A stretch of 64,000 nucleotides of DNA from an uncultured Gammaproteobacteria bacterium (GTDB lineage Bacteria; Patescibacteriota; Microgenomatia; UBA8517): positions 81,640 through 145,639 of the forward strand of contig CAZRJH010000003.1 in assembly GCA_964600575.1 (NCBI GenBank), written 5' to 3'. Within the stretch, counting starts at the first letter, position 1; each line of letters begins with the position of its first letter. The notes beneath the pieces were generated by a model. It did no database searches. It was not told the DNA's origin and saw nothing but the letters and a program-made list of their open reading frames with translations. Below are positions 1-64,000 of the stretch, piece after piece. The translations under genes were made by a program, and so were the position numbers.

Positions 1-392
1 ACCAAAATTATCGAAACTTAGATGAATATCTGCAAAGATCAATCAGATACGCAAGCATAGAATCGGTTGAATTGATCAAAAACGGTTACGATTTTTCCTG
101 GAAAGACCTTGTTACAAAGCCCGCCAACGAATTTTTTAGCAGATATTTTTTTGGTTTAGGTTATAAAGACGGTATTCATGGTCTTGCCGTCGGCCTTTTG
201 CAGTCGTTTTCGGAACTTTTAATTTATCTTAAGGTTTGGGAAAACAAAAAGTTTATTGAAAACGAAGTCAGCTTAAGGGAGGTTAATCATGTAATTTCAA
301 AAAATATAAAAGATCTTAAATACTGGCAGCATGAATCAAATTTTAAAGAAACGGGAAATATTATGGACTTCATAAAAAAGAAAATAAGATGA
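1..392 (+). CDS. GT2-family glycosyltransferase, WaaE/KdtX-like; 5'-truncated, only the C-terminal part lies in the window
   Basis: The reading frame is open from base 3 with no upstream stop, so the gene starts before the window; the TTG at 72 is an artefact of the ORF caller. The C-terminal sequence '...GLGYKDGIHGLAVGLLQSFSELLIYLKVWE' matches the C-termini of the paralogs at 1309..2031 and 19143..20012 and the canonical WaaE-type GT2 tail. Confidence 0.55.
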   Translation, partial: QNYRNLDEYLQRSIRYASIESVELIKNGYDFSWKDLVTKPANEFFSRYFFGLGYKDGIHGLAVGLLQSFSELLIYLKVWENKKFIENEVSLREVNHVISKNIKDLKYWQHESNFKETGNIMDFIKKKIR

Positions 393-1330
393 AAAAAAGA
401 ATTAAAGTATCAATAATCATTTTAACCTGGAATGCTTGCAAAATGACTTTGGAACAACTTAAAGATGCCTCCAAATTAGATACAAGCGGACTAGATGTCG
501 AAATGATAATCGTTGATAACGGCTCGATAGATGAAACTCAAGAAAAACTTTCGGAATATAAAATGCCCAATATGTCGTATAAGTTTATAGAAACCGGTAA
601 AAACCTCGGATTTGCGGGCGGAAATAATTTTGGTATAAAAGATGCCTTAGGCAGAGGATCAGATTATATGATCTTAATGAACAACGACCTAATTCTTTCT
701 AAAAACATAATTAAGAGTTTGGTGGATTTAGCGGAGTCGGATGTAAACATAGGACTAATAGCTCCAAAGATGTATTTTGCAAAAGGATACGAATTCCATA
801 AGAACAGATATAACCCAAAAGATTTAGGCAACGTAATCTGGTATGCCGGCGGAATCATTGACAGGGATAACGTTTACTCCGAACACAGGGGTGTAGACGA
901 GGTGGATAAGGGTCAATACGACAAGATTCAAGAAACAGACTTCGCCAACGGTGCTTGTGTCCTGGTGTCCAGAAAACTAGTAGAAAAGATTGGAGTGATT
1001 GATGAAACATTCTTTTTGTATTGGGAGGATGCCGATTATTCGGAAAGTGCCAGAATAGCAGGTTTTAAAGTTATTTATACTCCCGATACGTGGTTGTGGC
1101 ACATGGTTTCTGCAAGCACGGGTAGTAGCGGTAGTCCTTCAAACGACTATTTTTTAACCAGGAATAGGCTAATATTCGGATTAAGATACTCACCCTTAAG
1201 GACTAAGTTTGCCTTGTTCCGCGATAGTATTAGGCTGCTTTTTACGGGAAGGCATTGGCAAAAATTGGGAGTTGTCGATTTTTACTTGGGCAACTGGGGC
1301 CCGGGTAGGTGGCTCAAAAGAAAAAAATGA
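389..1330 (+). CDS. GT2-family glycosyltransferase (rhamnosyltransferase-like GT-A)
   Basis: N-terminal 'VSIIILTWN' and 'IIVDNGS.DET', the D-x-D-like 'MNNDL', 'GACVLVSRKL' and 'FFLYWEDADYS' are the classic GT2 signature. The ATGA overlap with the upstream gene at 389-392 suggests translational coupling. Confidence 0.75.
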   Translation: MKKRIKVSIIILTWNACKMTLEQLKDASKLDTSGLDVEMIIVDNGSIDETQEKLSEYKMPNMSYKFIETGKNLGFAGGNNFGIKDALGRGSDYMILMNNDLILSKNIIKSLVDLAESDVNIGLIAPKMYFAKGYEFHKNRYNPKDLGNVIWYAGGIIDRDNVYSEHRGVDEVDKGQYDKIQETDFANGACVLVSRKLVEKIGVIDETFFLYWEDADYSESARIAGFKVIYTPDTWLWHMVSASTGSSGSPSNDYFLTRNRLIFGLRYSPLRTKFALFRDSIRLLFTGRHWQKLGVVDFYLGNWGPGRWLKRKK

Positions 1331-2031
1331 GTAAAATTAGCGCAATCCTTCTTGTCGGAGGCGACTACAACGAGAAGTTATACAAAAAATGTTTGGAGTC
1401 CGTTACTTTTTGTGATGAGGTAATCAAAGTTCCCACTAAAGATATACCGGGAAGTTTTTCTGAGTGGCGCAATTGGGGTGCCGATAAAGCCAGGGGTGAT
1501 TGGCTTTTGTATGTTGATATCGACGAGGAGGTTACTCCGGAGTTAAAAAAAGAAATATTGGACTCGGTGGAAAGTGATGAATTTTCGGCATACGCATTTC
1601 CCAGGAAAAATATACTTTTGGGCAAAAATTTAACCCGAGGAGGTTGGTATCCGGACTACGTTCTCCGTCTGATTAAAAAGGAAAAGTTGAAAGGTTGGAG
1701 CGGAAGGTTACATGAGCAGCCCAAAGTAGAAGGTAGTATTTCCCATCTTAAAAACACATTGACACATGTAAGTCATAGAAGTATTTCGGAAATGATTAAA
1801 AAAACCAATCAGTGGTCCCGGCCCGAAGCACAGCTGCTCTTTGAATCGGGGCATCCCCCCATGAATATTTTCCGTTTTTTTACGGCGGGTTTTAGGGAAT
1901 TTTGGAAAAGAGGAATTATTTTGGGCGGCCTTTTAGACGGCACAATCGGCGCTGTCGAAGTTTTTTATCAGACTTTTAGTCGTCTTGTAACTTATACAAA
2001 ACTTTGGGAAATGCAAATCAACAAAAAATGA
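1309..2031 (+). CDS. GT2-family glycosyltransferase, WaaE/KdtX-like (paralog of 19143..20012 and 44324..45160)
   Basis: 'GDWLLYVDIDEEVTPELKKEI', 'GGWYPDYVLRLIKK' and the C-terminal '...FYQTFSRLVTYTKLWE' align motif-for-motif with the ORF at 19143. An alternative start is at 1327 (MSKISA). Confidence 0.6.
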   Translation: MAQKKKMSKISAILLVGGDYNEKLYKKCLESVTFCDEVIKVPTKDIPGSFSEWRNWGADKARGDWLLYVDIDEEVTPELKKEILDSVESDEFSAYAFPRKNILLGKNLTRGGWYPDYVLRLIKKEKLKGWSGRLHEQPKVEGSISHLKNTLTHVSHRSISEMIKKTNQWSRPEAQLLFESGHPPMNIFRFFTAGFREFWKRGIILGGLLDGTIGAVEVFYQTFSRLVTYTKLWEMQINKK

Positions 2032-3050
2032 GAGCTGCAATATTTAATCCTTACTTTGACACCTTGGGTGGTGGGGAGCGTTATACTGCCGAGGTTGCTC
2101 GTACGCTGTTAAAAAACGGCTACGAGGTAGATATAGAGTGGAACAACGAATCTTTGATCAAAAATATTATGCTTCGTTTTGGGATTAACATACAAGGAGC
2201 CAGAGTTGTCGCCGATATAGGAAGGGGAGATGGTTACGATTTAACTTTTTGGGTTTCCGACGGTAGCGTCCCTACGCTAAAATCAAGAAAAAACATTCTT
2301 CATTTCCAAGTTCCTTTTCAAAAAGTGTCCGGGTCAAGTCTGGTTAACAGAATGAAGATGTATCGAATCGATCATGTGGTATGTAACTCCTATTTTACAA
2401 AGGAGGTTATTGATAAAGAGTTTTCGGTTAAAAGCGTTGTGGTTTACCCCCCTGTAGAGGTCGATAAATTTTTATCAAAAAGAAAAGAAAACACAATATT
2501 GTATGTAGGCAGATTCTCAAAACTTAAACAGTCCAAAAGGCAGGATGTTCTGGTAGAAGCTTTTAAAGAATTATATGATTCGGGGCTTAGAGATTGGAAA
2601 ATGGTTTTGGCGGGAGGGTCGGAGGTTGGAGATTCGGACTTTTCGGATTTTCTAAAAAAACAGTCCCAGGGATATCCGATACGCTTTGTTAAAAGCCCTA
2701 ACTTTAAAGAAATTACAAATTTATTCGGAGTCTCCAAGATTTTTTGGTCTGCCTCGGGTTTTGGAGTGGAGGAGGGTGTAAGCCCCGATCTGGTTGAGCA
2801 TTTTGGCATAACTGTAGTAGAGGCGATGGCAAGCGGAGGTGTTCCTTTTGTTTATAACGCAGGCGGTCACAAAGAAATAATAGACGAAGGAGTTAACGGT
2901 TTTTTGTGGAATACTACGGATGAATTAAAAAACAAAACACAAATATTTATAAAAGAAAACAAATTTAACTTGTTGTCCAAAGAAGCTAAAGCCAAAAGTG
3001 TTAAATTTTCCGCGGAAGAGTTCGAAAAGGCCTTTTTAGAGCTTGTTTAA
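2028..3050 (+). CDS. GT4-family (GT-B) glycosyltransferase
   Basis: The C-terminal 'VVEAMASGGVPFVYNAGGHKEIIDEGVNGFLW' is the GT4 E-x7-E region. The start is taken at ATG 2028 (MRAAIFNPYF), giving an ATGA overlap with the upstream stop. Confidence 0.75.
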   Translation: MRAAIFNPYFDTLGGGERYTAEVARTLLKNGYEVDIEWNNESLIKNIMLRFGINIQGARVVADIGRGDGYDLTFWVSDGSVPTLKSRKNILHFQVPFQKVSGSSLVNRMKMYRIDHVVCNSYFTKEVIDKEFSVKSVVVYPPVEVDKFLSKRKENTILYVGRFSKLKQSKRQDVLVEAFKELYDSGLRDWKMVLAGGSEVGDSDFSDFLKKQSQGYPIRFVKSPNFKEITNLFGVSKIFWSASGFGVEEGVSPDLVEHFGITVVEAMASGGVPFVYNAGGHKEIIDEGVNGFLWNTTDELKNKTQIFIKENKFNLLSKEAKAKSVKFSAEEFEKAFLELV

Positions 3051-3080
3051 CTACTGGCGTTGTTGGGTTATACTGCAAAC

Positions 3081-3980
3081 ATGTCAAAAAAGTACAAAGT
3101 CTCAATTATTATTCCAAATTTGAACGGGGAAAAACTTATGGAAAAGAATCTGCCTTTTTTTATGAAAGCCTGGGCCAATAAAGAAAACTCAATCTTGGAA
3201 ATGATAATAGTAGATGACGGAAGTTGGGATGGAAGTGTAAATTTTTTAAAAAACAATTATCCAAAAATTAGAGTAATTAAACACAAAACCAATAGAGGTT
3301 TTTCCGCGGCCGTAAACACTGGAGCCCGTGCTGCAAAGGGAGATTTATTACTACTTATCAATACTGATGTTATTCCTCAAGACAACTTTCTTGAAAGTGC
3401 CACCAAACTTTTCGATGATGCAAAGGTGTTTGCCGTTTCGCTTCATGAAAAAAATTACGGTCCGGCAAAAGGTAGTTTTTCGGAGGGTTACATTCAGTTG
3501 GCAATGGGTTTAGAAACAAAAGAAATTCAGCAAAGTTTTTATGTCAGCGGCGGGAGCGGTCTTTTTAGAAGGGAATATTGGATGGAGATGGGGGGTATGG
3601 ATGAAAAACTTTTGTCACCGTTTTATTGGGAGGACATAGACATTTGTTATCGTGCATCCAAACGCGGTTATATTAATTTGTGGTCACCCGACGGCAAAGT
3701 AGTTCACAATCACGAATCTACAATTAGTAAGTTGTCAAAAACTTATGTTCAAAGAGTCAGAGAAAGAAATCAACTTCTCGTTATTTGGAAAAACATACAC
3801 AGCATTAATTTGATGCGAAAACATGTAATGGGAGTCTTTAAAAGACTGGTATTGCACCCGGGCTATATCCGGATAGTGATATTTGCACTTACTCGTCTCC
3901 CTGCCGCACTAAAGGCAAGGAAAAAGGAAATTAAAGAAAGCAAACTCTCAGATGAGCTAATATTATCAAGGTTCAACTAA
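3081..3980 (+). CDS. GT2-family glycosyltransferase
   Basis: 'KVSIIIPNLNGEK', 'MIIVDDGSWDGS', 'INTDVIP' and 'FYWEDIDICYRA' are GT2 motifs. The start is at ATG 3081 (MSKKYKVS). Confidence 0.75.
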   Translation: MSKKYKVSIIIPNLNGEKLMEKNLPFFMKAWANKENSILEMIIVDDGSWDGSVNFLKNNYPKIRVIKHKTNRGFSAAVNTGARAAKGDLLLLINTDVIPQDNFLESATKLFDDAKVFAVSLHEKNYGPAKGSFSEGYIQLAMGLETKEIQQSFYVSGGSGLFRREYWMEMGGMDEKLLSPFYWEDIDICYRASKRGYINLWSPDGKVVHNHESTISKLSKTYVQRVRERNQLLVIWKNIHSINLMRKHVMGVFKRLVLHPGYIRIVIFALTRLPAALKARKKEIKESKLSDELILSRFN

Positions 3981-4820
3981 ATGACATTTGATTTATCAAT
4001 TGTAATAGTAAATTTAAACACCAAAGATCTCACTTTGGGTTGCCTCGAATCAATCAAAAAATATTCCAGCGAAGCAAAAATTGAGGTACTTCTAACAGAC
4101 AACGGGTCAAACGACGGTTCCGTTTCGGCATTCCAACAACTTAAAAAACAAGATTTCTGGAGAGAGAGACTAACTTTAATTTTAAACGACAGTAATACGG
4201 GTTACGCAAAAGCAAACAATCAGGGTTATAAAAAAGCAAAAGGAAAATATATTTTTCTTTTAAATAACGACACTGTTCTTCATAAAAACGCTCTCAAAAA
4301 TTTACTGAAGTTTGCCGAAAAAACCGAGGACGCAGGTGTTGTGGGGTCAAGACTTTTGAATATCGACGGCTCGCTTCAGATGTCTTGTTATCATTTTCCA
4401 ACTTTATCTAATGCCATAAAAGAATATTGGTTTGGTAAAAAAGGGCTCTTTGAGAAGTTTGCCCCCCAAGGGAACAGGCCTGTTTCTGTAGATTCGGTCG
4501 TAGGTGCTGCATTTTTGATAACACCAAAAGCTCAAAAACTTGTAGGCATGCTCGATGAGAGATATTTCGCATATTTCGAGGATATCGATTACTGCAGGCA
4601 AACTTGGAAAAAAGGACTTAGAGTTTACTATTTACCCAACTCCGTAATTACTCATTATCACGGGGCCACTTTTAAAAAGTTAGCAAACGAAGCCGAACGA
4701 TGGAAGAAGCTGATTCCTTCCAGTAAGGTTTATCACGGGTTTTTTATGCACTATATTATTAACTCTGTTTTGTGGGTGGGGCAAAAATGGCAAAAAGTTA
4801 TATCTAAATTCTCTCCATAA
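3981..4820 (+). CDS. GT2-family glycosyltransferase
   Basis: 'LSIVIVNLNTKD', 'LLTDNGSNDGS', 'GYAKANNQG', 'LLNNDTV' and 'FAYFEDIDYCRQ' are GT2 motifs. It abuts the upstream gene. Confidence 0.75.
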   Translation: MTFDLSIVIVNLNTKDLTLGCLESIKKYSSEAKIEVLLTDNGSNDGSVSAFQQLKKQDFWRERLTLILNDSNTGYAKANNQGYKKAKGKYIFLLNNDTVLHKNALKNLLKFAEKTEDAGVVGSRLLNIDGSLQMSCYHFPTLSNAIKEYWFGKKGLFEKFAPQGNRPVSVDSVVGAAFLITPKAQKLVGMLDERYFAYFEDIDYCRQTWKKGLRVYYLPNSVITHYHGATFKKLANEAERWKKLIPSSKVYHGFFMHYIINSVLWVGQKWQKVISKFSP

Positions 4821-6489
4821 ATATATATTCCTCGCTTCCGTCTTTTCGTTTGATCTTTTCGGTAACTTTAGCAGGCAGGCCTGCTTTTATCTGGCTGTCG
4901 TATGCGCAATTGTACGAAACTATTACGAGCAATTTTTTGTCGGAATATTTTGTAAACGCATATTCAGACGGGCATTTATCTTCGGTAAAAACAATGTTTT
5001 GCCAAACTCTTTCGTTGGTGGTTTTTTTATATGTTGATTTATTAAACAATCCCGGCTCTAGTTTGTTGAAAAACGCGTACCAAGGATAGGGGCTGTCGGG
5101 AAAATTTGTAACAACTATTTTGTCATAAGCATCTTTCTTTTCATTTACTTTTTGAACCAAGTCCATCATTCCGGAATTTCTAAATGTAGGGCTATCTACA
5201 AACAGATTCTTGTAAAAAGGTTTGTGATAAAAAGAGTGGCTGTAATACATATGCAAAAAATAAACCAGAAAAACAGCAGTTACAGTAAATAATGAAAAAA
5301 ATACCCACCCTCTTATTTTTTTGTTCAGATTTGTCAAAAAAATTAAACCTTGGGCCTCAATCATTACCAAAAAAGCGGTCATGATAAAGGCCCTGTGTAG
5401 ATTTGGCGAGTCCTCTGCTGTAATAGCTGCCGGTATGGGGGAGAGTAACAAAAATAGCAAAGGCAAAAATGAATTTTTACCTTTTGCTATCTGAGCTAAC
5501 CCTAAAATTAAAAGTAAAATTTCGGCGTAATTAAGAAGTCCTACTCCGGGTGTTGCGTATCTATAGGGTCTGGCATCATAGCCTATTAAAAAACCGGAAC
5601 TAAAATAATTTCCGTAAGACATTGCAACCGCCTTTAAATAAACTGTAACCTTGTTGTCAAAAACTTTAGATGTTAATTTTGGATTTGCGTTTTCATCCCG
5701 AATTCTCTGTAATTCATACGCGGAGTCAATGCTTTTAAGTACAGATACCTGGCTTAATCTGGAAAATCCTCCCGAGGTAGAACTAAAAAATGCCGTAATA
5801 ACAAACACCAAAACTGCAGTAATAATAAATCTTTTAATTAAACCTTTTTTAACAAGTATCTTGTAAAAAAACAAAATGAAACTTACATAAAAAAACGGAG
5901 CCAAAAGTCTCATTGAGTGGTAGAACATGTTTGCCACAAAAATCGAAAACACCGAAAATATTAGATATCTGATTTTTGTCTTTTCCAAAGACAAGAGTAA
6001 TAAATACATAGACAAGACTCCAAAAAAAAGTGATATAGCCGCCTCGCTAGTTGCACGGGAAACTTCGATATGCCATGCTGACACCGCCATAAATATTGCG
6101 GCAAAATTACCCGGTGTTAAACCTAATATTTTTCTATTTTTCTTTTCCAGTTTGTCTAAAAACAGTGAAACTATAATTACGGTTAATGCACCAAAAAAAG
6201 CAGACATAAACCTTGTTGCAAAAATAGTGTTTCCAAATAACAAAACAGAAGGGATCGCTGCTAAAAAAATTCCGGTAGGACGATAATCTCCGAATGAGTC
6301 GTAATAAAGCCCCGGCTTTTGGTTGTGGTCGTCTAAACCGCTTTTGATTATAGAGTAAGCGTTCCAGCCGACTTTGGCTTCATCAACATGGAAACCCCAC
6401 GGGAAATCGGATAGGTAAGCAAGTCTTAAAAGTAGGGCAAAAATAAATATCCAAAATAAGGGTTTTTTGAGTATTTTTTTAATATTCAC
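4804..6489 (-). CDS. GT-C membrane glycosyltransferase, PMT/ArnT-like (GT39/GT83-like); paralog 1 of 7
   Basis: The 561-aa polytopic protein has an N-terminal TM followed by 'HVDEAKVGWNAYSIIKSGLDDHNQKPGLYYDSFGDY', the loop-1 D-E motif characteristic of Dol-P/undecaprenyl-P-sugar-dependent PMT_2/ArnT enzymes. There are many hydrophobic segments and a soluble C-terminal domain. Confidence 0.7.
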   Translation of the reverse strand: MNIKKILKKPLFWIFIFALLLRLAYLSDFPWGFHVDEAKVGWNAYSIIKSGLDDHNQKPGLYYDSFGDYRPTGIFLAAIPSVLLFGNTIFATRFMSAFFGALTVIIVSLFLDKLEKKNRKILGLTPGNFAAIFMAVSAWHIEVSRATSEAAISLFFGVLSMYLLLLSLEKTKIRYLIFSVFSIFVANMFYHSMRLLAPFFYVSFILFFYKILVKKGLIKRFIITAVLVFVITAFFSSTSGGFSRLSQVSVLKSIDSAYELQRIRDENANPKLTSKVFDNKVTVYLKAVAMSYGNYFSSGFLIGYDARPYRYATPGVGLLNYAEILLLILGLAQIAKGKNSFLPLLFLLLSPIPAAITAEDSPNLHRAFIMTAFLVMIEAQGLIFLTNLNKKIRGWVFFSLFTVTAVFLVYFLHMYYSHSFYHKPFYKNLFVDSPTFRNSGMMDLVQKVNEKKDAYDKIVVTNFPDSPYPWYAFFNKLEPGLFNKSTYKKTTNERVWQNIVFTEDKCPSEYAFTKYSDKKLLVIVSYNCAYDSQIKAGLPAKVTEKIKRKDGSEEYIFMERI

Positions 6490-6536
6490 TTTTTGCAGGT
6501 TTGATTTAGCAAGTGGAGTATACAGGAAGGTCTAAA

Positions 6537-10818: not shown

Positions 10819-10828
10819 ATGATACAAT
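10819..10828 (+). promoter_or_regulatory. Candidate extended -10 promoter element (ATGATACAAT) for the PMT-like gene at 10843
   Basis: The 10-mer is identical to the one at 6537..6546. It lies in the 34-bp divergent gap, and an AGGA sits 5-8 nt upstream of the ATG. Confidence 0.3.
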
Positions 10829-10842
10829 CATATAGGAAAATA

Positions 10843-12495: not shown

Positions 12496-12503
12496 ACACC
12501 CAT

Positions 12504-19140: not shown

Positions 19141-19142
19141 CA

Positions 19143-22181: not shown

Positions 22182-22186
22182 CTCAT

Positions 22187-47790: not shown

Positions 47791-47815
47791 GAACTGTTTT
47801 TACAAGTCTAAAATT

Positions 47816-52123: not shown

Positions 52124-52124
52124 T

Positions 52125-56679: not shown

Positions 56680-58147
56680 CAAATTATTAAAATTCATTAA
56701 TACGGGTTTTTTTGAATACGCACTACTTTTTATTGTTTTGATTTTCGGTTTTGCAATAAGGCTTTACAAGGTAGATAACCCCATAGCCGATTGGCACTCC
56801 TGGAGACAGGCGGACACTGCAAGTGTCACAAGGTCTTTTATAAAAGAAGGAATCAGCTTTTTGTATCCAACTTACCATGATATCTCAAGTATCCAAACGG
56901 GTATATTTAACCCTAACGGATACAGAATGGTCGAGTTACCAATTTATAACGCCGCACATGCAGTTCTTGCTAAAAATTTACCTTTTTTGAGTTTGGAGAT
57001 TTGGGGTAGAGTTTTGACTATAACAATTGCGGTGATAACGGCACTTTTTTTGTATTTAATAGGAAAAAGACTTTTAAACAAATGGGGCGGACTTCTAGCG
57101 TGTTTTTTCTATCTTTTTATACCTTTTAACATTTATTTTACAAGGGTAATACTTCCGGATCCGTTGGGAGTGATGTTCGGAGTGGTTTCCGTTTGGGCTT
57201 TTTTGGTCTACACACAAAGTCTTAAAACTTTATTTTTCTACACATCGGCGGTATTTATGTCGTTTACTTTTTTGATTAAGCCCTACCTGGCTTTTTATAT
57301 GTTTCCGATTTTTTATTTAACTTTCCAAAAATTCGGTTTTAAACAAATATTTAAAGATAAAAAACTTTTGAACAAATTTATTATTTATGCATTGATTTCT
57401 CTTGTTCCGTTTTTGGTTTATAGGGCTTGGGAGGCAAGGTTCCCTGAAGGAATCCCTTTTTATAAATGGGCGTTTAATGGTAACGGAATAAGATTCAAAC
57501 CTTCATTTTGGTATTGGATTTTTGGTCAGAGGCTATCTCATTTGATTTTGGGAGGGCTGGGTATAATTCCGTTTGTATTTGGAGTTTTTAACACCAAAGT
57601 AAAAAACCAATTTATCAGTTATTTTCTTTTGGGAGCGTTTGTTTATATAACTTTGGTTGCCAATGCCAATGTAATGCATGACTATTATCAAATTCCCGTA
57701 ATTCCCGTTATCGCACTGGCACTTGCTTCGGGTTCAATTTATTTGTGGGAGGGTGGCGGGTTCAATAAAATTCTTACCAGGTTAACACTTTTAATATCAA
57801 TCGGAGTTATGTTGATAACCGGATGGAGTCTGATAAAAGACAATTACAATGTTAATCATCCCGAGATTATTGCTGCAGGCAATAGAGTAGACAAAATTAC
57901 CCCCAAAGACGCCTTAATACTGGCACCATACAATGGTGACACAGCCTTTTTATATCAGACAAAAAGAAACGGATGGCCGGCGGTTGATGATTCAATAGAG
58001 AATATTATTAAAAAAGGAGCTTCGTTTTACGCATCGGTGGACTTGGGTAGTCCGGACACTAGATTGGTTGAGTCGGAATATAAGACTTTGGAAAAGACTG
58101 ATAAATTTATAATAATCGATCTTCGTGCACCCTTAAAAACAAAATGA
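56666..58147 (+). CDS. GT-C membrane glycosyltransferase, ArnT/PMT_2-like
   Basis: 'DWHSWRQADTASVTRSF' (R-x-x-D-T loop) and 'YRMVELPIYNAAHAVLAK' are typical of undecaprenyl-phosphate-sugar-dependent GT-C transferases. The protein is 493 aa and polytopic. Confidence 0.6.
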   Translation: MKTYNKLLKFINTGFFEYALLFIVLIFGFAIRLYKVDNPIADWHSWRQADTASVTRSFIKEGISFLYPTYHDISSIQTGIFNPNGYRMVELPIYNAAHAVLAKNLPFLSLEIWGRVLTITIAVITALFLYLIGKRLLNKWGGLLACFFYLFIPFNIYFTRVILPDPLGVMFGVVSVWAFLVYTQSLKTLFFYTSAVFMSFTFLIKPYLAFYMFPIFYLTFQKFGFKQIFKDKKLLNKFIIYALISLVPFLVYRAWEARFPEGIPFYKWAFNGNGIRFKPSFWYWIFGQRLSHLILGGLGIIPFVFGVFNTKVKNQFISYFLLGAFVYITLVANANVMHDYYQIPVIPVIALALASGSIYLWEGGGFNKILTRLTLLISIGVMLITGWSLIKDNYNVNHPEIIAAGNRVDKITPKDALILAPYNGDTAFLYQTKRNGWPAVDDSIENIIKKGASFYASVDLGSPDTRLVESEYKTLEKTDKFIIIDLRAPLKTK

Positions 58148-59343
58148 AAATTTTAATGCTTACTCCTTACTTACCGTTCCCTGATTCCTCGGGCGGTCAG
58201 ATCCGTTCGTATAATTTAATTAAATATTTAAGTAAAAAACACGACATCACACTTTTTTCTCTTATCAAAGACGATTCGGAAAAACGGTTTGTTTCGGAAC
58301 TTGAGAAATATTGTAAAAAGGTAAAAGTTTTTAAAAGATCCAAATCTCCTTGGACTCTTCGTAACATCCTTTTAACCGGATTTGGGCCTTACCCGTTTCT
58401 TGTTATAAGAAATCTCTCACCCAGAGAAAGATTTGCCGTTATTAAAGAAATAGAAGACGAAAAGTACGATCTTATTCACGCCGAGACTTTTTATGTAATG
58501 CCTCATATTCCTAAAACAAAAATACCCATACTTTTAGTGGAACAGACAATCGAGTATTTAGTTTACAAGCATTATGTGGAAGGTTTAAAAAATATCTTTC
58601 TGAGACTTTTGCTTTCGATAGATGTTGCAAAACTTCGTTTCTGGGAAACTTCATTTTGGAAAAAAGCCGACGGAGTTGTTGCCGTTTCCGAAGCAGACAA
58701 AAACGAAATGCTTAAACTGGCACCCGATTTGGACGTAGGTCTGGTTCCCAATGGCGTAAACTTGGATTTTTTCCAGGTTAAAGGCAGTTGGACTGCAAAA
58801 AATCCAAAAATACTGTTCGTCGCAAATTTTAAGTGGCTACAAAATGTAGAGGCTGCGGAGCTACTTTTGGATCATGTTTTCCCTGCTGTCAAAAAGAAAA
58901 ATCCCAGCGTTAAAGTTTGGGTAGTCGGGCAATACATTCCCGAGCATATTTTAAAAAGGAAAAGTAAGGATATCATCGTAGATAATCTTAAAGAAGATGA
59001 CCAGGAGGGTATTAGAAAAGCATACTACGAAGCTTCAGCTTTTGTGTCACCTCTAAAAGGTCCGGGAGGTACGCGTTTAAAGCATTTTGCTGCAATGGCG
59101 GCAAAGCTACCCTTGATAACGACTTCCGTGGGGGCTGAGGGTTTAGGAGCAACTCATTCCCACAACATTATTATTCAGGATGAACCGATGTCTTTGGCAG
59201 AAGCAACCTTGGAAATAATTGGAGACTCAAAAAAAGCAAAAATAATTGCAGATAATGCAAGAAAGCTGGTTGAAGAAAAATATAGTTGGTATAAAATGAG
59301 CGAGTACCTCGACTCAATATACGTTGAAAACGCAAAAAAATGA
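58144..59343 (+). CDS. GT4-family glycosyltransferase
   Basis: The N-terminal 'KILMLTPYLPFPDSSGGQIRSYNLIKYL' is a GT4_N motif. The C-terminus 'RLKHFAAMAAKLPLITTSVGAEG' completes the GT-B domain. Confidence 0.7.
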   Translation: MKILMLTPYLPFPDSSGGQIRSYNLIKYLSKKHDITLFSLIKDDSEKRFVSELEKYCKKVKVFKRSKSPWTLRNILLTGFGPYPFLVIRNLSPRERFAVIKEIEDEKYDLIHAETFYVMPHIPKTKIPILLVEQTIEYLVYKHYVEGLKNIFLRLLLSIDVAKLRFWETSFWKKADGVVAVSEADKNEMLKLAPDLDVGLVPNGVNLDFFQVKGSWTAKNPKILFVANFKWLQNVEAAELLLDHVFPAVKKKNPSVKVWVVGQYIPEHILKRKSKDIIVDNLKEDDQEGIRKAYYEASAFVSPLKGPGGTRLKHFAAMAAKLPLITTSVGAEGLGATHSHNIIIQDEPMSLAEATLEIIGDSKKAKIIADNARKLVEEKYSWYKMSEYLDSIYVENAKK

Positions 59344-60221
59344 AAAGACCCGAACTGTCGGTAATAATTCTTAATTACAACACAAAAGAACTCTTGGAGG
59401 ATTGTTTGAATTCAATCAAAAGAATCATAAAAGAGGTTAAAATGGAAATAATTGTTTCGGACAATAGTTCGACCGACGGAAGTCCGGATATGGTTAGAAA
59501 AAAGTTCCCGTGGGTTAAACTTATAGAGGGTCCAAACGAAGGTTTTTCCAGAGGAAACAACAGAGCAAGACCGCTGGCTAGGGGAGATATGATATTGTTC
59601 TTGAATCCCGACACGGTTGTGCATCCGGGCGTATTTTCTAAGAATGTAGCTTACTTAAAAAAACACTCTGAAGTTGGAGCCCTCACTTGCAAATTGGTTT
59701 TGCCGGACGGTTCAATGGATAAAGATGTAAGAAGAAGATTTCCTACCCCGAGAGTTTCCTTTAATAGATTAATTTTGGGTAAAACCAGAGAGTATTATTA
59801 CGAAGACATACCGAACACAAAAACCCACGAGGTGGATGCCATACAGGGCGCTTTTTTCCTGTCGTGGAAGAGAATTTTGGATAAAGTGGGATGGTTCGAC
59901 CCGGAATACTTTTTCGACGGCGAAGATGTGGATTTGTGTTATCAAATACACAAAGAAGGTTATAAACTAGTCTATTATCCGGAAACCTACATTACACATT
60001 TAAAAGGAGTAACAAAAGGTAAAGTAAAAAAATGGAAATTTAAAACCACTCCCGAACACAGAAAAAAACTTAGACTTGCAGGGGTTGCCTCAATGGAAAG
60101 ATTTTTTAGAAAGAACCTTTGGGATAGATACCCGATCTGGTTCGACTATTTTGTCCTTTTTGGAATAAATGTTTTCAAAGTAATCCGTTATGTTAAAGTC
60201 GCACTTCTTTCTTCTTACTAA
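59340..60221 (+). CDS. GT2-family glycosyltransferase
   Basis: 'LSVIILNYNTKELL', 'IIVSDNSSTDGS', 'GFSRGNN', 'LFLNPDTVV' and 'YFFDGEDVDLCYQ' are GT2 motifs. Confidence 0.75.
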   Translation: MKRPELSVIILNYNTKELLEDCLNSIKRIIKEVKMEIIVSDNSSTDGSPDMVRKKFPWVKLIEGPNEGFSRGNNRARPLARGDMILFLNPDTVVHPGVFSKNVAYLKKHSEVGALTCKLVLPDGSMDKDVRRRFPTPRVSFNRLILGKTREYYYEDIPNTKTHEVDAIQGAFFLSWKRILDKVGWFDPEYFFDGEDVDLCYQIHKEGYKLVYYPETYITHLKGVTKGKVKKWKFKTTPEHRKKLRLAGVASMERFFRKNLWDRYPIWFDYFVLFGINVFKVIRYVKVALLSSY

Positions 60222-61375
60222 TGAAAATACTAATTGACGGACGTTTATACGGCTTGGAAAATGCCGGTTTAGGAAGATATATCATGAGTTTGGTAACCGA
60301 ACTTTCAAAGATTGACAACAAAAACCGCTACATCCTTTTATTAACAAAAAAATATGCGTCAAAAGTAGTTCTTCCCGAAAACTGGAAGATTGTAACCGCC
60401 AACTTTAGACACTACAGTTTCTTTGAACAATTTTTTTTACCCAAGATTATCAAAGAAGAAAAACCGGATATTACACATTTCCCGCATTTTAATGTTCCTA
60501 TTTTTTTTAAAGGTAATTTCGTGGTAACGGTCCACGATCTTTTGATGCACAAGCAAACGGGACTGGCGGCAACCACCTTAATTCCACCTATGTATTTTCT
60601 TAAAAGAACCGCTTACAAATCCGTTTTTAGATACGCGGTTATGCGGTCAAAAAGGATAATAGTTCCCAGTATAGCTGTACAAGAAGAAGTTCAAAAATAT
60701 TACGGAATCGATGATAAAAAAATTGATGTTGTTTATGAAGGTTTCGAAGAAAAAAATATTGAAAAAAAGATTGTTTTTGATCCCAAAAAATACGGTTTAG
60801 GAAGCTTATACATTTCTTATGTCGGAAACGCATACCCTCATAAAAATCTAAAGAGATTAATAGAAGCAGTTGTTTTGTACAATGAAAATTCGGGTAGAAA
60901 TCTAACATTGGCACTAGCTTCGGCAAGAAACCAATTTACCAAACGGTTAGAAAAGACCATTGTCGAGTTGGGTGCACAGAAATATGTAAAAATGGTGGGT
61001 TTTGTGCCCGACGAACAGCTTCCTGACTTTTTAAGAAAATCTGTCGGTCTTTTTACCCCGTCTTTGTCGGAGGGTTTTGGACTTCCAGGCCTCGAGGCGA
61101 TGAGTTTTGGAACTTTTGTTGCGGCGTCGGAAATACCCGTCTACAAAGAGATTTACAAAGATAACGCACTCTATTTTAACCCGTTCGATTTTACATCAAT
61201 CGAGAATGCCATATCGCGTGTTGTAAATATGAACCAAAAAGATAAAATAGACCGAATCAAAAAATCGGAAGAATTTATAAAAAGATATTCGTGGAAAAAA
61301 GCTGCCCAGGAAACACTTTTAGTTTATGAAAAAGCGTACGGCAACAGTTTACCGCAAAGTAGAAACCAAACTTAA
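60221..61375 (+). CDS. GT4-family glycosyltransferase
   Basis: 'SEGFGLPGLEAMSFGTFVAASEIPVYKEIY' is the GT4 motif. Confidence 0.75.
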   Translation: MKILIDGRLYGLENAGLGRYIMSLVTELSKIDNKNRYILLLTKKYASKVVLPENWKIVTANFRHYSFFEQFFLPKIIKEEKPDITHFPHFNVPIFFKGNFVVTVHDLLMHKQTGLAATTLIPPMYFLKRTAYKSVFRYAVMRSKRIIVPSIAVQEEVQKYYGIDDKKIDVVYEGFEEKNIEKKIVFDPKKYGLGSLYISYVGNAYPHKNLKRLIEAVVLYNENSGRNLTLALASARNQFTKRLEKTIVELGAQKYVKMVGFVPDEQLPDFLRKSVGLFTPSLSEGFGLPGLEAMSFGTFVAASEIPVYKEIYKDNALYFNPFDFTSIENAISRVVNMNQKDKIDRIKKSEEFIKRYSWKKAAQETLLVYEKAYGNSLPQSRNQT

Positions 61376-62447
61376 TAAGCTTAAAATTGCTTTGGTTTAC
61401 GATAGGGTAAATAAATGGGGAGGTGCCGAACGTGTCCTTTTGGCTCTCCACCAAATCTTTCCTGAAGCTCCGCTTTTTACTTCGGTTTACGATAAAAATA
61501 AAGCAAAATGGGCCGGGGTGTTTCCTAAAATATACACAAGTTTTTTGCAAAACATACCGTTTGCAAAAGGTAACCACGAGTTTTTGGCCCCCCTAATGGC
61601 TCTTGCTTTTGAGTCGTTCGATTTTTCCAGCTACGATTTGGTTATAAGTGTTACAAGTGAGTTCTCCAAATCCATAAGGACGGGGGTAAACACAAAACAT
61701 ATCTGCTATTGTTTAACCCCGACGAGATATTTATGGAGCGGTTACAATACATATTTCAAAAGCAAATCCTTTTTGAGTTTATTTGGAAGGATTTTGGTCC
61801 CTTATCTTAGAAGACTAGACAAAACTCTCGCCCAAAGGCCGGATAAAATAATTGCTATTTCTTCGGAGGTTTCCAAAAGAATCAAAAAATATTACGGAAG
61901 AAATGCAAAGATAGTTTTTCCACCTGTTAACATTCCAAAATACAAAACCGGGTCCCACAAAAGAAAACATTTTTTAGTTGTTAGTAGATTGGTAAGTTAC
62001 AAAAGAGTTGATTTGGCTATCAAAGTTTTTAACAAGATAAAACATAGACTTCTGATTGTTGGAACGGGTAGAGAATATAGTAATCTTAAAAAAATATCCA
62101 AAAGTAATATTAAGTTTTTGGGCAATGTTAGCGAAAACAGATTACGAAAAATTTATTCCGAATCTCTGGGTTTTATAATGCCGCAGGAAGAGGATTTTGG
62201 AATTGCGGCAATAGAAGCCCAGTCCTTTGGGGTACCCGTTTTAGCTTTTGATAAAGGCGGTTCGAAAGATACAGTTTTGCACAAAAAGACCGGGATATTA
62301 TTTTCCCGTCAAAATATAGATTCTTTACATAAGGCAATAAAAATTTTTGAAAAAACAAATTTCAACAAAAAGTATATTAAAAGTCATGCCGCAGGTTTTT
62401 CTACAATAAAATTCCAAAAAGCGTTTACTAAGGTAGCTTTTGAATAG
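61326..62447 (+). CDS. GT4-family glycosyltransferase
   Basis: The N-terminal 'KIALVYDRVNKWGGAERVLLAL' is a GT4_N motif, and the C-terminal 'QEEDFGIAAIEAQSFGVPVLAFDKGGSKD' is the GT4 catalytic region. The start is uncertain: ATG 61326 overlaps the upstream gene by 50 nt. Confidence 0.7.
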   Translation: MKKRTATVYRKVETKLNKLKIALVYDRVNKWGGAERVLLALHQIFPEAPLFTSVYDKNKAKWAGVFPKIYTSFLQNIPFAKGNHEFLAPLMALAFESFDFSSYDLVISVTSEFSKSIRTGVNTKHICYCLTPTRYLWSGYNTYFKSKSFLSLFGRILVPYLRRLDKTLAQRPDKIIAISSEVSKRIKKYYGRNAKIVFPPVNIPKYKTGSHKRKHFLVVSRLVSYKRVDLAIKVFNKIKHRLLIVGTGREYSNLKKISKSNIKFLGNVSENRLRKIYSESLGFIMPQEEDFGIAAIEAQSFGVPVLAFDKGGSKDTVLHKKTGILFSRQNIDSLHKAIKIFEKTNFNKKYIKSHAAGFSTIKFQKAFTKVAFE

Positions 62448-62473
62448 CCTTCTTTGTTGTTTGTCATTTTTTA

Positions 62474-62486
62474 AACAGGTGTTAAA
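62474..62486 (+). promoter_or_regulatory. Candidate extended -10 (TGTTAAAAT) upstream of manC
   Basis: It lies in the 47-bp intergenic region 62448..62494. TGn-TAAAAT is 8 nt upstream of the ATG. Confidence 0.25.
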
Positions 62487-62494
62487 ATAAACCC

Positions 62495-63613
62495 ATGGAT
62501 GAAAACGGATTCCAAAAACATCTTTACGCTCTTGTCTTAGCAGGAGGCGGAGGAACCAGATTGTGGCCAAAAAGTCGCAACGACACCCCAAAACAATTTC
62601 TAAAACTTTTTAAGGATCAGACTCTTACACAAATTACAATCCAGAGACTCAGGAAAATTATCCCTTTGGAAAAAATATTTATAGTTACCGTCTCCGAGGC
62701 ATACAGGGACGAAATTAAAGCAGAGATACCTGACTTTATAGACGAAAACATAATAGTAGAACCGGTGAGAAGAGAAACAGGGCCTGCTTATGCCCTAGGT
62801 GCACTTCATATTCACGAAAAAGACAACGACGCAGTCATTATTACGGAAGCGGCAGATAGGTTGGTTAGACCTATTCCACTTTACCTAGATACTTTGACAA
62901 CAGCGGCAAAAGTAGCATACGAACAAAAAGTTATGATTGCTATGGGAATCGAACCGCGCTATCCCCACCCCGGCTTGGGGCATATTAAAAAGGGCAAAAA
63001 GAAAGACACAATAAACGGTTTAGACTTTTATGAACTTGCAGACTTTGTAGAAAAACCTCCCATAGAAGTTGCCAAAGAATATACGGAGTCGGGTCAATAT
63101 TTGTGGAACGCCGGGCAATATGTTTGGAGGGCAGATACACTTCTTAATTCCTATAAGGTTAACGCTTCGGAAATTTATGACATTTTGGAAAACATACGAC
63201 CCCATGTTTTCCATCAGGACGAACGGGTTTTACTTAAAGCACAATATGAAAAGATGCCTTCGATTGCTGTTGATTATGCAATTTCCGAGAAAGATAAGAA
63301 TTTTCTGGCCGCAGCAGCAGATTTCTATTGGACAGATATCGGCGATTGGAAAGAAGTTTGGGGAAATTTGCCTAAGGATTCAGGTGGGAATGTCATAATT
63401 TCGGGTAGTGGTGGCAATACCGAGGTAATAAATGTTGATACAACAGACTCGCTTATCCATACGGACGGTAGGCTTATAGCAATTGTTGATGTGGACAATA
63501 TTGTGGTTGTAGACACAAATGACGCGCTTCTTATCACCACAAAAAGCCGTGCTCAGAGCGTAAAGAAAGTTGTGGAAAGACTTAAAGAAGAAGGTAAGGA
63601 TGAATTGCTCTGA
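62495..63613 (+). CDS. manC: Mannose-1-phosphate guanylyltransferase (GDP-mannose pyrophosphorylase), nucleotidyltransferase only
   Basis: 'LYALVLAGGGGTRLWPKSRNDTPKQFLKL' is the NTP_transferase G-rich loop typical of ManC/CpsB. 'IVEPVRRETGPAYALGA' is also present. At 372 aa there is no C-terminal phosphomannose isomerase domain. Confidence 0.75.
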   Translation: MDENGFQKHLYALVLAGGGGTRLWPKSRNDTPKQFLKLFKDQTLTQITIQRLRKIIPLEKIFIVTVSEAYRDEIKAEIPDFIDENIIVEPVRRETGPAYALGALHIHEKDNDAVIITEAADRLVRPIPLYLDTLTTAAKVAYEQKVMIAMGIEPRYPHPGLGHIKKGKKKDTINGLDFYELADFVEKPPIEVAKEYTESGQYLWNAGQYVWRADTLLNSYKVNASEIYDILENIRPHVFHQDERVLLKAQYEKMPSIAVDYAISEKDKNFLAAAADFYWTDIGDWKEVWGNLPKDSGGNVIISGSGGNTEVINVDTTDSLIHTDGRLIAIVDVDNIVVVDTNDALLITTKSRAQSVKKVVERLKEEGKDELL

Positions 63614-63632
63614 TGTCTAATTTTTAAGAGTT

Positions 63633-64000
63633 ATGTACTATGATGCAATAAAAAGAATCGTCGATATTTGTATGTCGGTAGTTCTTATAATATTGTTCGC
63701 TCCGATAATGCTGGTTACTGCACTTGTTATAAAATTTACTTCTCCCGGACCAGTGCTTGTAGAAAGAGGAAACAAAACAGCCCAAAGAGTAGGTAAAGAC
63801 GGTAGGATTTTTTATCATTACAAATTTAGATCGATGATAGTTGATGCTTACCGACTTCTTAAAACAGACCCTAAATTTAAAAAGCTTTATCGGGAGTACA
63901 AGGAGTCCAGTTTTAAACTTCATAAAGACCCGAGAGTCACAAAGTTTGGAAAATTTATTCGTAAATATTCAATCGATGAAATGCCTCAGCTTTTTAATGT
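63633..64000 (+). CDS. Monotopic phosphoglycosyl transferase (bacterial sugar transferase, PglC/WbaP C-terminal-domain family); 3'-truncated by the window end
   Basis: The translation 'MYYDAIKRIVDICMSVVLIILFAPIMLVTALVIKFTSPGPVLVERGNKTAQRVGKDGRIFYHYKFRSMIVDAY...RVTKFGKFIRKYSIDEMPQLFNV' has the KR-x-D/re-entrant helix, 'SPGPV', 'YKFRSM' and 'DE(M/L)PQL(F/I)NV' signatures of the Bac_transf family. It is absent from the supplied ORF track because no stop codon falls in the window. Confidence 0.8.
   Translation, partial: MYYDAIKRIVDICMSVVLIILFAPIMLVTALVIKFTSPGPVLVERGNKTAQRVGKDGRIFYHYKFRSMIVDAYRLLKTDPKFKKLYREYKESSFKLHKDPRVTKFGKFIRKYSIDEMPQLFN

Follow-up and report, generated by a model that had tools for sequence, protein, structure and literature searches.

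GT-C glycosyltransferases use lipid-phosphate-linked sugars at the outer face of the membrane, as summarized together with the logic of three-component systems in PMC11127046. Such systems, represented by GtrA-GtrB-GtrC of Shigella and Salmonella, CsbB-GtcA-YfhO of Bacillus and Listeria, and the GT136 system of Citrobacter, combine a small GT2 synthase, a flippase, and an acidic-loop GT-C; they have one, rarely a few, GT-C enzymes and add a single side-chain sugar. Here, we describe a 64,000-nucleotide stretch of contig CAZRJH010000003.1 (positions 81,640 to 145,639), called the window, whose numbering is used throughout with negative positions lying upstream. By its gene content, the window is the central three quarters of a predicted cell-envelope glycan biosynthesis locus of ~85 kb, and the organism, judged by its homologs, is a Woesebacterium (Microgenomates, Candidate Phyla Radiation (CPR)/Patescibacteria). 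Like the three-component systems, the locus contains GT-C enzymes with acidic loops, and its GT2 and GT-C genes are adjacent and translationally coupled; small GT2 enzymes are candidate synthases, and a GtrA domain fused to an upstream GT2 and the Wzx proteins are candidate flippases. Unlike them, it carries 16 GT-C genes in 64 kb and about 23 in 85 kb, most of them ancient conserved paralogs, along with ~5 candidate donor synthases, none of which reaches an equivalog cutoff.

The mycobacterial pathways for arabinogalactan and lipoarabinomannan (LAM), which involve EmbA/B/C, AftA-D, MptA/B, and PimE, offer a second comparison. In mycobacteria, many GT-C enzymes act in series, and the 4.4-Mb genome of M. 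tuberculosis contains roughly 15-17 dispersed GT-C genes; the Woesebacterium has more, gathered in one locus of a genome that is probably smaller than 1 Mb. Both would use many GT-C enzymes to build an envelope glycan from lipid-phosphate sugars, and Emb, Aft, and PimE are among the fold matches of the enzymes described here. Identities to them are only 10-13%, the locus has no decaprenyl-phosphate arabinose pathway (DprE1/E2, UbiA-type phosphoribosyl-pyrophosphate transferase), and its enzymes, at ~550 amino acids (aa), lack the large C-terminal carbohydrate-binding modules of the Emb proteins.

Wzx/Wzy loci for O-antigen, capsule, or exopolysaccharide provide a third. They share with this locus a phosphoglycosyl transferase, GT2 and GT4 enzymes, Wzx, Wzy_C, and genes for nucleotide-sugar synthesis, acetylation, and methylation, while a nearby LytR-CpsA-Psr (LCP) ligase fits Gram-positive wall polysaccharides. 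However, typical Wzx/Wzy loci are four to five times smaller, no Wzz/PCP or Wza was found in this locus, and a DUF4012 gene lies beside the phosphoglycosyl transferase gene. Whereas Wzx/Wzy loci are hypervariable, this one is conserved across its lineage, at least at both ends. Every component is of a known kind; what is unusual is the 84.7-kb scale, the density of GT-C genes (16 in 64 kb), the ancient one-to-one paralog array, the lineage-wide conservation in a reduced genome, and the distance of the GT-C families from studied enzymes.

The window holds 58 genes. They derive from a listing of 62 open reading frames (ORFs) of at least 100 aa, from which five short nested ORFs were dropped and to which the two genes truncated at the window ends were added. 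With a coding fraction of 0.99, the window has 53 of its genes on the + strand, which applies to every gene below unless the − strand is given. Families are assigned to 53 of the 58 through Pfam, NCBIfam, homolog domains, and hhalign. The original prediction had tallied about 15 GT2, 11 GT4, and 16 GT-C enzymes and five methyltransferases, and domain, profile, and fold searches reproduce all four counts. The GT2 domains (PF00535) comprise 13 complete genes, the C-terminal half of a fusion at 38982-41069, and the 5'-truncated first gene; the GT4 domains (PF00534, PF13692, or PF13439) comprise ten genes and the N-terminal half of the fusion. Twelve GT-C genes match PMT_2, PMT, or PTPS_related at E<=1e-3, and four divergent ones are assigned otherwise. 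Altogether, the window encodes ~42 glycosyltransferase domains and the extended locus more than 55, with Pfam, profile, and fold searches supporting the assignments. The claim that every confidently assigned gene in the window belongs to glycan biosynthesis also stands: ARAGORN detects no tRNA, Rfam gives zero matches at gathering thresholds, and a Pfam scan of all ORFs reveals no integrase, transposase, other mobile-element gene, or housekeeping gene.

Around these enzymes, the window carries one each of several pathway genes. A Wzx/MOP-family flippase is encoded at 42941..44236 (PF01943, 88.9 bits), and a Wzy-type polymerase or O-antigen-ligase-like protein at 55240..56679 (PF04932, 39.3 bits against a cutoff of 31.7; 37-48% orthologs in 11 of 12 relatives), a domain that does not distinguish polymerase from ligase. 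The small monotopic phosphoglycosyl transferase begins near the window end at 63633 (63633..64000 being the 5' part of a 216-aa product ending at 64283); its full-length product matches PF02397 in locus L001, with 263 bits for TIGR03025 and 248 bits for WbaP over the catalytic domain. These three components had been predicted from the sequence, as had a Dpm1-like synthase; the gene at 23122 is a candidate of this type, its best matches being AglJ and PpgS, both under their cutoffs. Nucleotide-sugar genes include WecB, a non-hydrolyzing UDP-GlcNAc 2-epimerase (32377..33441; PF02350, 353 bits; TIGR00236, 382 bits, passing the cutoff of 210), a GDP-L-fucose-synthase-like epimerase/reductase of the short-chain dehydrogenase/reductase type (22169..23125; PF01370, 183 bits; NCBIfam Fcl, 294 bits against a cutoff of 500), and a ManC-like mannose-1-phosphate guanylyltransferase lacking the isomerase domain (62495..63613; PF00483, 109 bits; PF22640, 58.6 bits; TIGR01479, 276 bits, under the bifunctional cutoff). 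A hexapeptide-repeat, WcaF-like sugar O-acetyltransferase lies at 53233..53829 (PF00132, 54.5 bits; NCBIfam WcaF family, 92 bits, under cutoff). The five S-adenosylmethionine (SAM)-dependent methyltransferases are found at 26398..27051 (PF13489, 70.5 bits), 31640..32380 (PF13489, 64.5 bits), 35739..36593 (FkbM family; PF05050, 77.5 bits; TIGR01444, 115 bits, cutoff passed), 36584..37315 (PF13847, 67 bits), and 42065..42868 (PF08241, 38 bits).

The phosphoglycosyl transferase, 26 GT-A/GT-B domains, two Wzx genes, Wzy-like gene, sugar-nucleotide genes, methyl- and acetyltransferases, and LCP gene together make a two-stage model the most economical. With a probability of roughly 0.6, the ~85 kb would be a native Woesebacterium envelope-glycan locus in which one or more Wzx/Wzy-type lipid-linked glycans are elaborated outside the cell by GT-C enzymes. 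The analysis establishes families and folds, the order of the genes and its conservation, and the operon signals; donors, sugars, order of steps, acceptor, and wall attachment are inferred. Local supplies of GDP-mannose (ManC), UDP-ManNAc (WecB), and a GDP-6-deoxyhexose (the Fcl-like reductase) would feed the pathway. The phosphoglycosyl transferase would prime the glycan on polyprenyl phosphate, cytoplasmic GT2 and GT4 enzymes would lengthen it, and the methyltransferases and acetyltransferase would modify it. Wzx may then flip the lipid-linked glycan, and the Wzy-like protein may polymerize or ligate it. In parallel, DPM1/GtrB-type GT2 enzymes (two in the window, three upstream) would charge polyprenyl phosphate with single sugars, one of them with a GacJ-type DUF2304 partner and one fused to GtrA, and the lipid-linked sugars would be flipped in turn. 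Outer-face GT-C enzymes, 16 in the window and about 23 in the locus, would add branches or whole segments from these donors, and the LCP enzyme probably attaches the product to the wall. The large enzyme set, the presence of two Wzx genes, and the division into three modules that are each conserved on their own suggest that the locus makes several glycans or else a single, very large structure without repeats.

Several observations weigh against this model. Among the 86 proteins encoded by the extended region, none was found to have a Wzz/PCP chain-length regulator domain, and on that feature full membership in the classical Wzx/Wzy scheme fails. No GDP-mannose 4,6-dehydratase that could supply the Fcl-like enzyme was seen in the locus, and just one phosphoglycosyl transferase was found although the pathways appear to be several. 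All five candidate polyprenyl-phosphate sugar synthases score far below NCBIfam equivalog cutoffs. Independent short-read assemblies also fragment into 2.7-5.2-kb contigs over 42517-60490, compared with 67 kb of contiguous sequence to the left.

The GT-C enzymes carry the extracytoplasmic half of the model. Seven of them, the GT-C genes from 4804 to 19140 other than 12492, form a paralog family whose members have 8-10 hydrophobic segments each and are 27-34% identical to one another. The first (4804..6489, − strand) matches PMT_2 at 23.5 bits, under the gathering score, is 27-31% identical to its paralogs over ~490 aa, and has the Asp-Glu (DE) motif. It is followed by genes at 6554..8269 (PMT_2, 44 bits; PMT, 32.8 bits; 52% ortholog in relative locus L025), 8321..10006 (− strand; PMT_2, 40 bits; 60% ortholog in L025), 10819..12495 (ORF opening at 10723; PMT_2, 53 bits; 50% ortholog in L025), 14086..15855 (PF02366, 26.5 bits; 56-57% orthologs in L025 and L085), 15821..17491 (PMT_2, 50 bits; GT-C matches in Foldseek), and 17488..19140 (PMT_2, 24.6 bits, under gathering; 31% identity to 15821 over 548 aa; 55-57% orthologs). 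A recent tandem duplication was considered for these genes and rejected. Six of the seven have their own ortholog in relatives at 50-60% identity, compared with 27-34% between paralogs, which indicates that the array is ancient and stable rather than recently amplified. The Asp-Glu pair (D40-E41) in the first outside loop is invariant in all 39 sequences compared, the seven paralogs and 32 homologs.

Structural prediction supports this assignment. Searching the seven-paralog profile against PDB sequences gives nothing significant (best E=0.018 and 0.14), nor does the profile of the Gpi18-like family described below, so both GT-C families needed a fold search. The AlphaFold2 (AF2) model of 15821 (pLDDT 88, pTM 0.90) shows a helical membrane bundle with a beta-rich C-terminal domain. 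Its Foldseek matches in the PDB at E<=0.05 are exclusively GT-C enzymes: AglB, STT3, ArnT, PglB, ALG9/12, Pmt4, DPY19, Emb, AftB, and PimE, with TM-scores of 0.45-0.56 and 10-16% identity (AglB, E 3e-7; ArnT, TM-score 0.52-0.55; ALG12, TM-score 0.56-0.63). By this modeled fold, the seven are bona fide GT-C enzymes distant from any characterized one, and they would use polyprenyl-phosphate-linked donors at the outer face of the membrane.

The same enzymes raise the question of whether the locus serves mainly protein glycosylation, with GT39/PMT-like GT-C enzymes loading Ser/Thr residues of S-layer, pilin, or other surface proteins and the paralogs reflecting site or sugar specificity. Precedents are the actinobacterial Pmt, the streptococcal Pgf system, and GtrB/PgtC2. 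PMT_2 and PMT are the best Pfam matches, homologs are labeled 'glycosyltransferase family 39', and, as in the GT39 protein O-mannosyltransferases (actinobacterial Pmt, eukaryotic PMT1-7), an invariant DE motif in loop 1 accompanies the GT-C fold. PgfS is the best NCBIfam match of two upstream GT2 enzymes, an 'O-glycosylation flippase' model matches the upstream Wzx at 118 bits, and oligosaccharyltransferases (OSTs) are top fold matches. Protein O-glycosylation by GT-C enzymes is itself documented in Gram-positive bacteria (PMC12041528). Yet the OST, ArnT, ALG, and Emb matches are equally distant (TM-scores 0.45-0.56, 10-16% identity), no solved PMT appears at E<1 by profile, and in the fold search Pmt4 and Pmt1/2 match less well than ArnT, OST, and ALG do. 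No WWDYG-type OST motif or peptide-binding domain was identified, and the Wzy-type polymerase, phosphoglycosyl transferase, 26 GT-A/GT-B domains, and nearby LCP ligase indicate a polymer. We regard protein glycosylation as the main function as unlikely. The acceptor cannot be read from sequence, and for that reason the open wording of the original prediction, a complex methylated surface glycan or an uncharacterized protein-glycosylation system, is the right level of claim.

Nine of the 16 GT-C genes reach the gathering score of PMT_2, PMT, or PTPS_related (6554, 8321, 10723, 12492, 14086, 15821, 37312, 49680, and 56666), and three fall 2-4 bits short (4804, 17488, and 46528). Outside the paralog family, these include a PTPS_related/YfhO-like enzyme (12492..14168; PF10131, 26.9 bits; 33% identity to an upstream paralog at -7529) and GT-C genes at 37312..38976 (PMT_2, 39 bits; hhalign 96%), 46528..47790 (PMT_2, 22 bits, under gathering; hhalign 97-100% to GT-C families), 49680..51008 (PMT_2, 33 bits), and 56666..58147 (PMT_2, 42.7 bits; ~50% orthologs in 12 of 12 relatives). 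At the position of the upstream YfhO-like gene (-7529), single here, three relatives have three such PTPS_related/YfhO-like genes in tandem (L021 11409-16492, L023 16723-21450, and L027 13255-18330), so copy number there varies by lineage while the flanks stay fixed.

The remaining four (21036, 24930, 29225, and 45164) are assigned solely through homologs or through profiles and fold. The 381-aa protein at 21036..22181 is a Gpi18/PIG-V-like (GT76/GT87-like) GT-C. It has no Pfam match of its own, but its homologs carry PF04188 (Gpi18/PIG-V), PF13231, or PF09594 and bear the JGI name 'Gpi18-like mannosyltransferase'; its AF2 model (pLDDT 92) significantly matches (E<=0.05) only GT-C-fold proteins, nearly all of them glycosyltransferases. 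The divergent enzyme at 24930..26387 (485 aa, ~9 transmembrane segments) matches PMT_2 at E=0.0016 and two GT-C families at 96-97% in hhalign, with orthologs at 42-44%. That at 29225..30568 (447 aa, ~9 transmembrane segments) belongs to a family of 881 homolog clusters, and 25 of 40 homologs match PMT_2 (best E=3e-7). For this protein, hhalign gave no direct support and a permissive Pfam scan gave a weak PMT_2 match; a weak profile match (57% probability) places its Asp-rich loop, with the invariant D133/D139, over the DE-loop region of the paralog family. The protein at 45164..46531 (455 aa, ~8 transmembrane segments) has no Pfam match and is a probable divergent GT-C, aligning with the paralog family at 88% over 299 columns in hhalign. 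When the seven proteins without a match were scanned against NCBIfam and, permissively, Pfam, the weak PMT_2 matches of 24930 and 29225 were the sole yield.

A 273-aa membrane protein (9987..10808, − strand) without a Pfam or NCBIfam match resembles a GT-C that lacks the N-terminal catalytic loop, aligning in hhalign at 84% with columns 132-398 of the paralog family. Its gene overlaps the start of the GT-C gene 8321-10006, and a protein with 49% identity occupies the same position in L025 (3405-4241). It may be a non-catalytic partner subunit.

Gpi18-like enzymes also bear on another explanation: a membrane-anchored lipoglycan, like mycobacterial lipomannan/LAM or Gram-positive lipoglycans, built on a scavenged lipid by successive GT-C mannosyl- or hexosyltransferases. 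In its favor are the Gpi18/PIG-V- and GT87-like GT-C enzymes encoded at 21036 and, outside the window, at -16758, the gene for GDP-mannose supply, fold matches that include PimE, AftB, and Emb, and the mycobacterial pattern of many GT-C enzymes acting in series. However, no PimA/PimB-type lipid-priming enzyme was specifically identified, and the phosphoglycosyl transferase, Wzx, and Wzy, with an LCP gene nearby, suggest an intermediate linked to polyprenyl diphosphate. This explanation appears quite unlikely.

For the envelope-glycan model, the supply of lipid-linked sugars depends on the five candidate synthases. In NCBIfam, these genes (23122 and 27038 in the window; -18346, -15529, and -10842 upstream) match AglJ, PpgS, ArnC, PgfS, and Dol-P-hexose transferase best. 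The small GT2 at 23122..23781 is a candidate of the DPM1/GtrB/PpgS/AglJ-like polyprenyl-phosphate sugar synthase type (PF00535, 85 bits; AglJ, 96 bits, and PpgS, 94 bits, under equivalog cutoffs). The one at 27038..28162 (− strand) is a candidate of the same type with a 140-aa N-terminal extension (PF00535, 81 bits; AglJ, 101 bits, under cutoff). At -18346, a GtrA_DPMS_TM domain is fused to the GT2. Upstream of the window, GT2 and GT-C genes adjoin or overlap, and of the two Wzx/MOP genes in the locus, one lies in the window at 42941 and the second upstream.

The synthase at 23122 has a neighbor of interest. A small DUF2304 membrane protein of the GacJ/Rv3632 family with ~3 hydrophobic segments (23821..24153; PF10066, 69 bits, cutoff 25.5) is encoded 39 nt 3' of 23122-23781, and the pair is kept in two relatives. 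Two other members of the DUF2304 family, GacJ and Rv3632, are stimulators of GacI and PpgS, respectively (10.1101/180810), and by analogy the protein at 23821 is a predicted helper of the 23122 synthase. The arrangement of a GT2 followed by DUF2304, with a Wzx-family flippase and GT-C enzymes in the same locus, recalls GacI/GacJ/GacK/GacL of S. pyogenes and PpgS/Rv3632/Rv3779 of Mycobacterium. Unlike those systems, 23122 reaches only 94 bits on the PpgS model against a cutoff of 370, and polyrhamnose or arabinogalactan backbone genes are absent here.

The 64-kb extent originally given was too small, as the locus runs from -18346 to 66391 (84.7 kb), between TrmD and RecO. Upstream, the order is TrmD (opposite strand), the GT2-GtrA fusion, a DUF35 protein, the Gpi18-like GT-C (-16758), a GT2/GT-C/DHH/GT-C/GT2 block, a GT39-like GT-C, a PTPS_related GT-C, two more GT-C-like proteins, the second Wzx, and a methyltransferase. 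The DHH/DHHA1 phosphoesterase (-13305..-12316; L008 5783-6772) stands between two GT-C genes, overlaps the upstream one by ATGA, and keeps its position in nearly all relatives examined. That conserved position within a GT-C block suggests a role in the glycan pathway, for example in lipid-phosphate or sugar-phosphate processing, rather than in nucleic-acid metabolism. Downstream lie the phosphoglycosyl transferase, DUF4012, RecO, housekeeping genes, LytR-CpsA-Psr (5 kb downstream), and GlyRS. The DUF4012 protein (683 aa, 64340-66391, one N-terminal transmembrane segment) has no NCBIfam or PDB match, and its gene overlaps RecO (66391-66936) by 1 nt (L001 3851-6447). In 12 of 12 relatives, the phosphoglycosyl transferase gene is likewise followed by DUF4012 and then RecO, and position makes DUF4012 a candidate chain-length or export factor.

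An assembly or binning artefact or a recently acquired mobile island was also considered, and two facts would fit: the short-read assemblies break at 42.5-60.5 kb, and the closest genome record is labeled 'Gammaproteobacteria'. However, exact-protein look-ups show that independent Logan assemblies of two runs contain the same DNA. A 67,775-bp Logan contig covers 1-42517, identical at 100% in the stretches fetched, and extends ~25 kb further upstream; a second matches 60490-64000 at 100% in fetched stretches and continues downstream, while a second-run contig over 60621-63796 shows two differences in 3176 positions. The GC content stays uniform (0.33-0.40), GC skew is steadily positive, and integrase, transposase, and tRNA genes are lacking. 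The TrmD, RecO, and GlyRS flanks and the gene order are common to many Woesebacteria. Both a mobile island and a chimera, the latter envisaged in the original prediction as its possible undoing, were therefore rejected on the even GC, the Logan identity, the housekeeping flanks, and the synteny in relatives, and we consider them extremely unlikely. The breaks at 42.5-60.5 kb may reflect strain-level variation.

Homologs of three different locus proteins are named Woesebacteria, Patescibacteria, or Microgenomates, and a genome scan returned Woesebacteria/Microgenomates metagenome-assembled genomes (MAGs), several from subsurface or groundwater projects, judging by their record names. Homolog names and genome titles agree with the CPR/Patescibacteria origin guessed at the outset. 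The closest genome record (L010, CAZRGC010000001.1), titled 'Gammaproteobacteria', shows 69% identity and perfect synteny, with proteins 61-89% identical. It is one of four third-party-annotation MAG records (L010, L016, L021, and L024) that are titled 'uncultured Gammaproteobacteria' or 'Pseudomonadales' and carry the locus in perfect synteny at up to 89% protein identity. A Woesebacteria locus in such synteny means that these taxonomic labels are wrong. An archaeal origin, considered for the abundance of PMT_2 and the leaderless starts described below, was rejected: Bac_transf, LCP, RecO, and TrmD are present, and close homologs are all from Patescibacteria.

Relatives share the gene order, at 45-75% aa identity, from about -19 to +30 kb and again from +53 to +66 kb. 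In the eight relatives examined for it, the leftmost 21 kb together with window genes 1-5 keeps its order, with extra GT-C paralogs inserted or lost. Window positions 6.5-30 kb are collinear in GCA_040961635.1 and GCA_041485065.1, where one-to-one orthologs share 41-75% identity compared with ~30% between paralogs. For the right-hand module (54-66 kb), 12 of 12 metagenome relatives show the same arrangement, with identities of 45-79%, in the order acetyltransferase, 178-aa protein, GT2, Wzy, GT-C, GT4, GT2, GT4, GT4, ManC, phosphoglycosyl transferase, DUF4012, RecO. In Woesebacteria RBG_13_46_13, a single 93-kb contig carries both the GT39 left marker and the DUF4012 right marker, on the same strand and separated by 89.7 kb; in this genome they are 75.5 kb apart. 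By these comparisons, the locus is a conserved lineage trait rather than a strain-specific island, predicted to be chromosomal and vertically inherited. Near-chromosome-size contigs of relatives measure 0.69-0.95 Mb. If the genome is of similar size (assumed ~0.7-1 Mb), the locus would occupy ~9-12% of it, so the substantial fraction of coding capacity first proposed stands insofar as the largest contigs of relatives are a guide to genome size.

Operon signals run through the whole window. The original prediction listed 14 ATGA stop/start overlaps, 12 of which are genuine; at 3981, a TAA stop directly abuts the ATG, and the sequence at 24150 is GTGA, 24162 being the likelier start. Two more at 1327 and 23122 were missing from that list, restoring the total to 14, and with 53 of 58 genes on the + strand, the proposed long, translationally coupled operons are upheld. 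The promoter-like elements noticed beside start codons are also real and significant. The hexamer of an extended -10 element (TGNTANNNT) stands at -12 in 8 of the 86 extended-region genes against 0.10 expected per offset, and the extended -10 TGnTAnAAT ends 6-7 nt 5' of the ATG at genes opening transcription units. Shine-Dalgarno-like tetramers are almost absent upstream of the 86 genes.

Leaderless-type sites in or beside the window are TGCTACAAT, 6 nt 5' of the ATG of the first GT2 gene (start -504); TGATACAAT, 7 nt 5' of the ATG of the GT-C at 6554 (6538-6556); TGATATAAT, 6 nt 5' of that of the GT2 at 54384 (54369-54386); and TGTTAAAAT, 6 nt 5' of that of the ManC-like gene at 62495 (62480-62497). 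Extended -10 sites outside the window lie at -18356, -9102, -4524, -519, 66926, and 70644. Across 32 loci of relatives (661 kb), there are 57 cases in which the motif precedes, by 5-8 nt, the ATG of an ORF that is 100 aa or longer, compared with 0 in the reversed-sequence control. The spacing to the ATG and the near absence of Shine-Dalgarno sequences point to leaderless mRNA, from which the first gene of each operon, in the window 6554, 54384, and 62495, is probably translated. No description of this leaderless-type pattern in Patescibacteria appeared in the literature searched.

The first gene (1..392) is the 3' part of a 298-aa GT2 starting at -504; its full-length product matches PF00535 in locus L005 and is 28-29% identical to the GT2 enzymes at 19143 and 1327. 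Further GT2 genes are located at 389..1330 (67 bits; ATGA overlap at 389; ortholog in every relative examined), 1327..2031 (a weak match of 26 bits, barely over the gathering score; 29% identity to the first GT2), 3060..3980 (82 bits), 3981..4820 (rhamnosyltransferase-like; 89.5 bits; NCBIfam TIGR01556, 56 bits, under cutoff), 19143..20012 (72.5 bits), 24162..24929 (106 bits), 41038..42024 (− strand; 40.6 bits), 44324..45160 (44 bits), and 48829..49662 (122 bits), all scored on PF00535. GT4 genes matching PF00534 lie at 2028..3050 (77.7 bits), 20021..21061 (81.5 bits), 30565..31647 (60.8 bits), 33438..34607 (73.6 bits), 47753..48832 (96 bits), 51026..52123 (91.5 bits), and 52035..53240 (114 bits). 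The fusion at 38982..41069 joins an N-terminal GT4 (PF00534, 129 bits, residues 190-357) to a C-terminal GT2 (PF00535, 43.5 bits, residues 404-528).

In the right-hand module, a 178-aa protein (53830..54366) conserved beside the acetyltransferase has no family match and 48-55% orthologs in L038 and L059. The conserved module opens, by synteny, with the GT2 at 54384..55310 (PF00535, 78.8 bits); after Wzy and the GT-C come a GT4 at 58144..59343 (PF13692, 64.5 bits; PF13439, 53 bits), a GT2 at 59340..60221 (PF00535, 72 bits), and GT4 genes at 60221..61375 (PF00534, 84.6 bits) and 61326..62447 (PF00534, 98 bits). A 336-aa membrane protein with ~5 transmembrane segments (28211..29221) shares with the 53830 protein a complete lack of matches in Pfam (including a permissive scan), NCBIfam, and hhalign. 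The soluble alpha/alpha-toroid-like protein at 34604..35746 matches only weakly (Pec_lyase, 30.8 bits; prenyltransferase; squalene-cyclase repeats; LanM) and has no PDB sequence match. Its gene is ATGA-coupled and sits between a GT4 gene and the FkbM methyltransferase gene.

We know of no other single locus with this many GT-C enzymes. CPR bacteria, whose genomes are tiny and whose mode of life is thought to be attachment to other cells, are believed to lack lipid synthesis, and their surface chemistry is almost unknown. A locus of this kind in CPR, Patescibacteria, Microgenomates, or Woesebacteria is not described in the literature searched, whose coverage was limited and does not prove novelty. 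In a Parcubacterium genome, 20 glycosyltransferases genome-wide were already termed abundant (PMC5220378).

A broader idea, possible but on balance doubtful, is that Woesebacteria, and perhaps Microgenomates, assemble their main envelope glycan mostly outside the cytoplasm. More than 20 ancient GT-C enzymes and several polyprenyl-phosphate sugar synthases, encoded on ~9% of a sub-megabase genome, would then form an independent counterpart of mycobacterial arabinogalactan/LAM. If this is true, the glycan of this extracytoplasmic assembly line would be a lineage-defining surface structure, plausibly a host or phage interface, and some of the GT-C families, far from solved or curated ones, would be new CAZy families; interest in the locus would rise above its present moderate level. 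The locus is also a source of divergent GT-C enzymes and GT2/DUF2304 pairs for biochemistry, and it implies that these organisms, despite their presumed lack of lipid synthesis, depend heavily on polyprenyl-phosphate carriers. If expressed, it would define a major, lineage-conserved surface glycan that may help to determine attachment to hosts, susceptibility to phages, and the integrity of the envelope.

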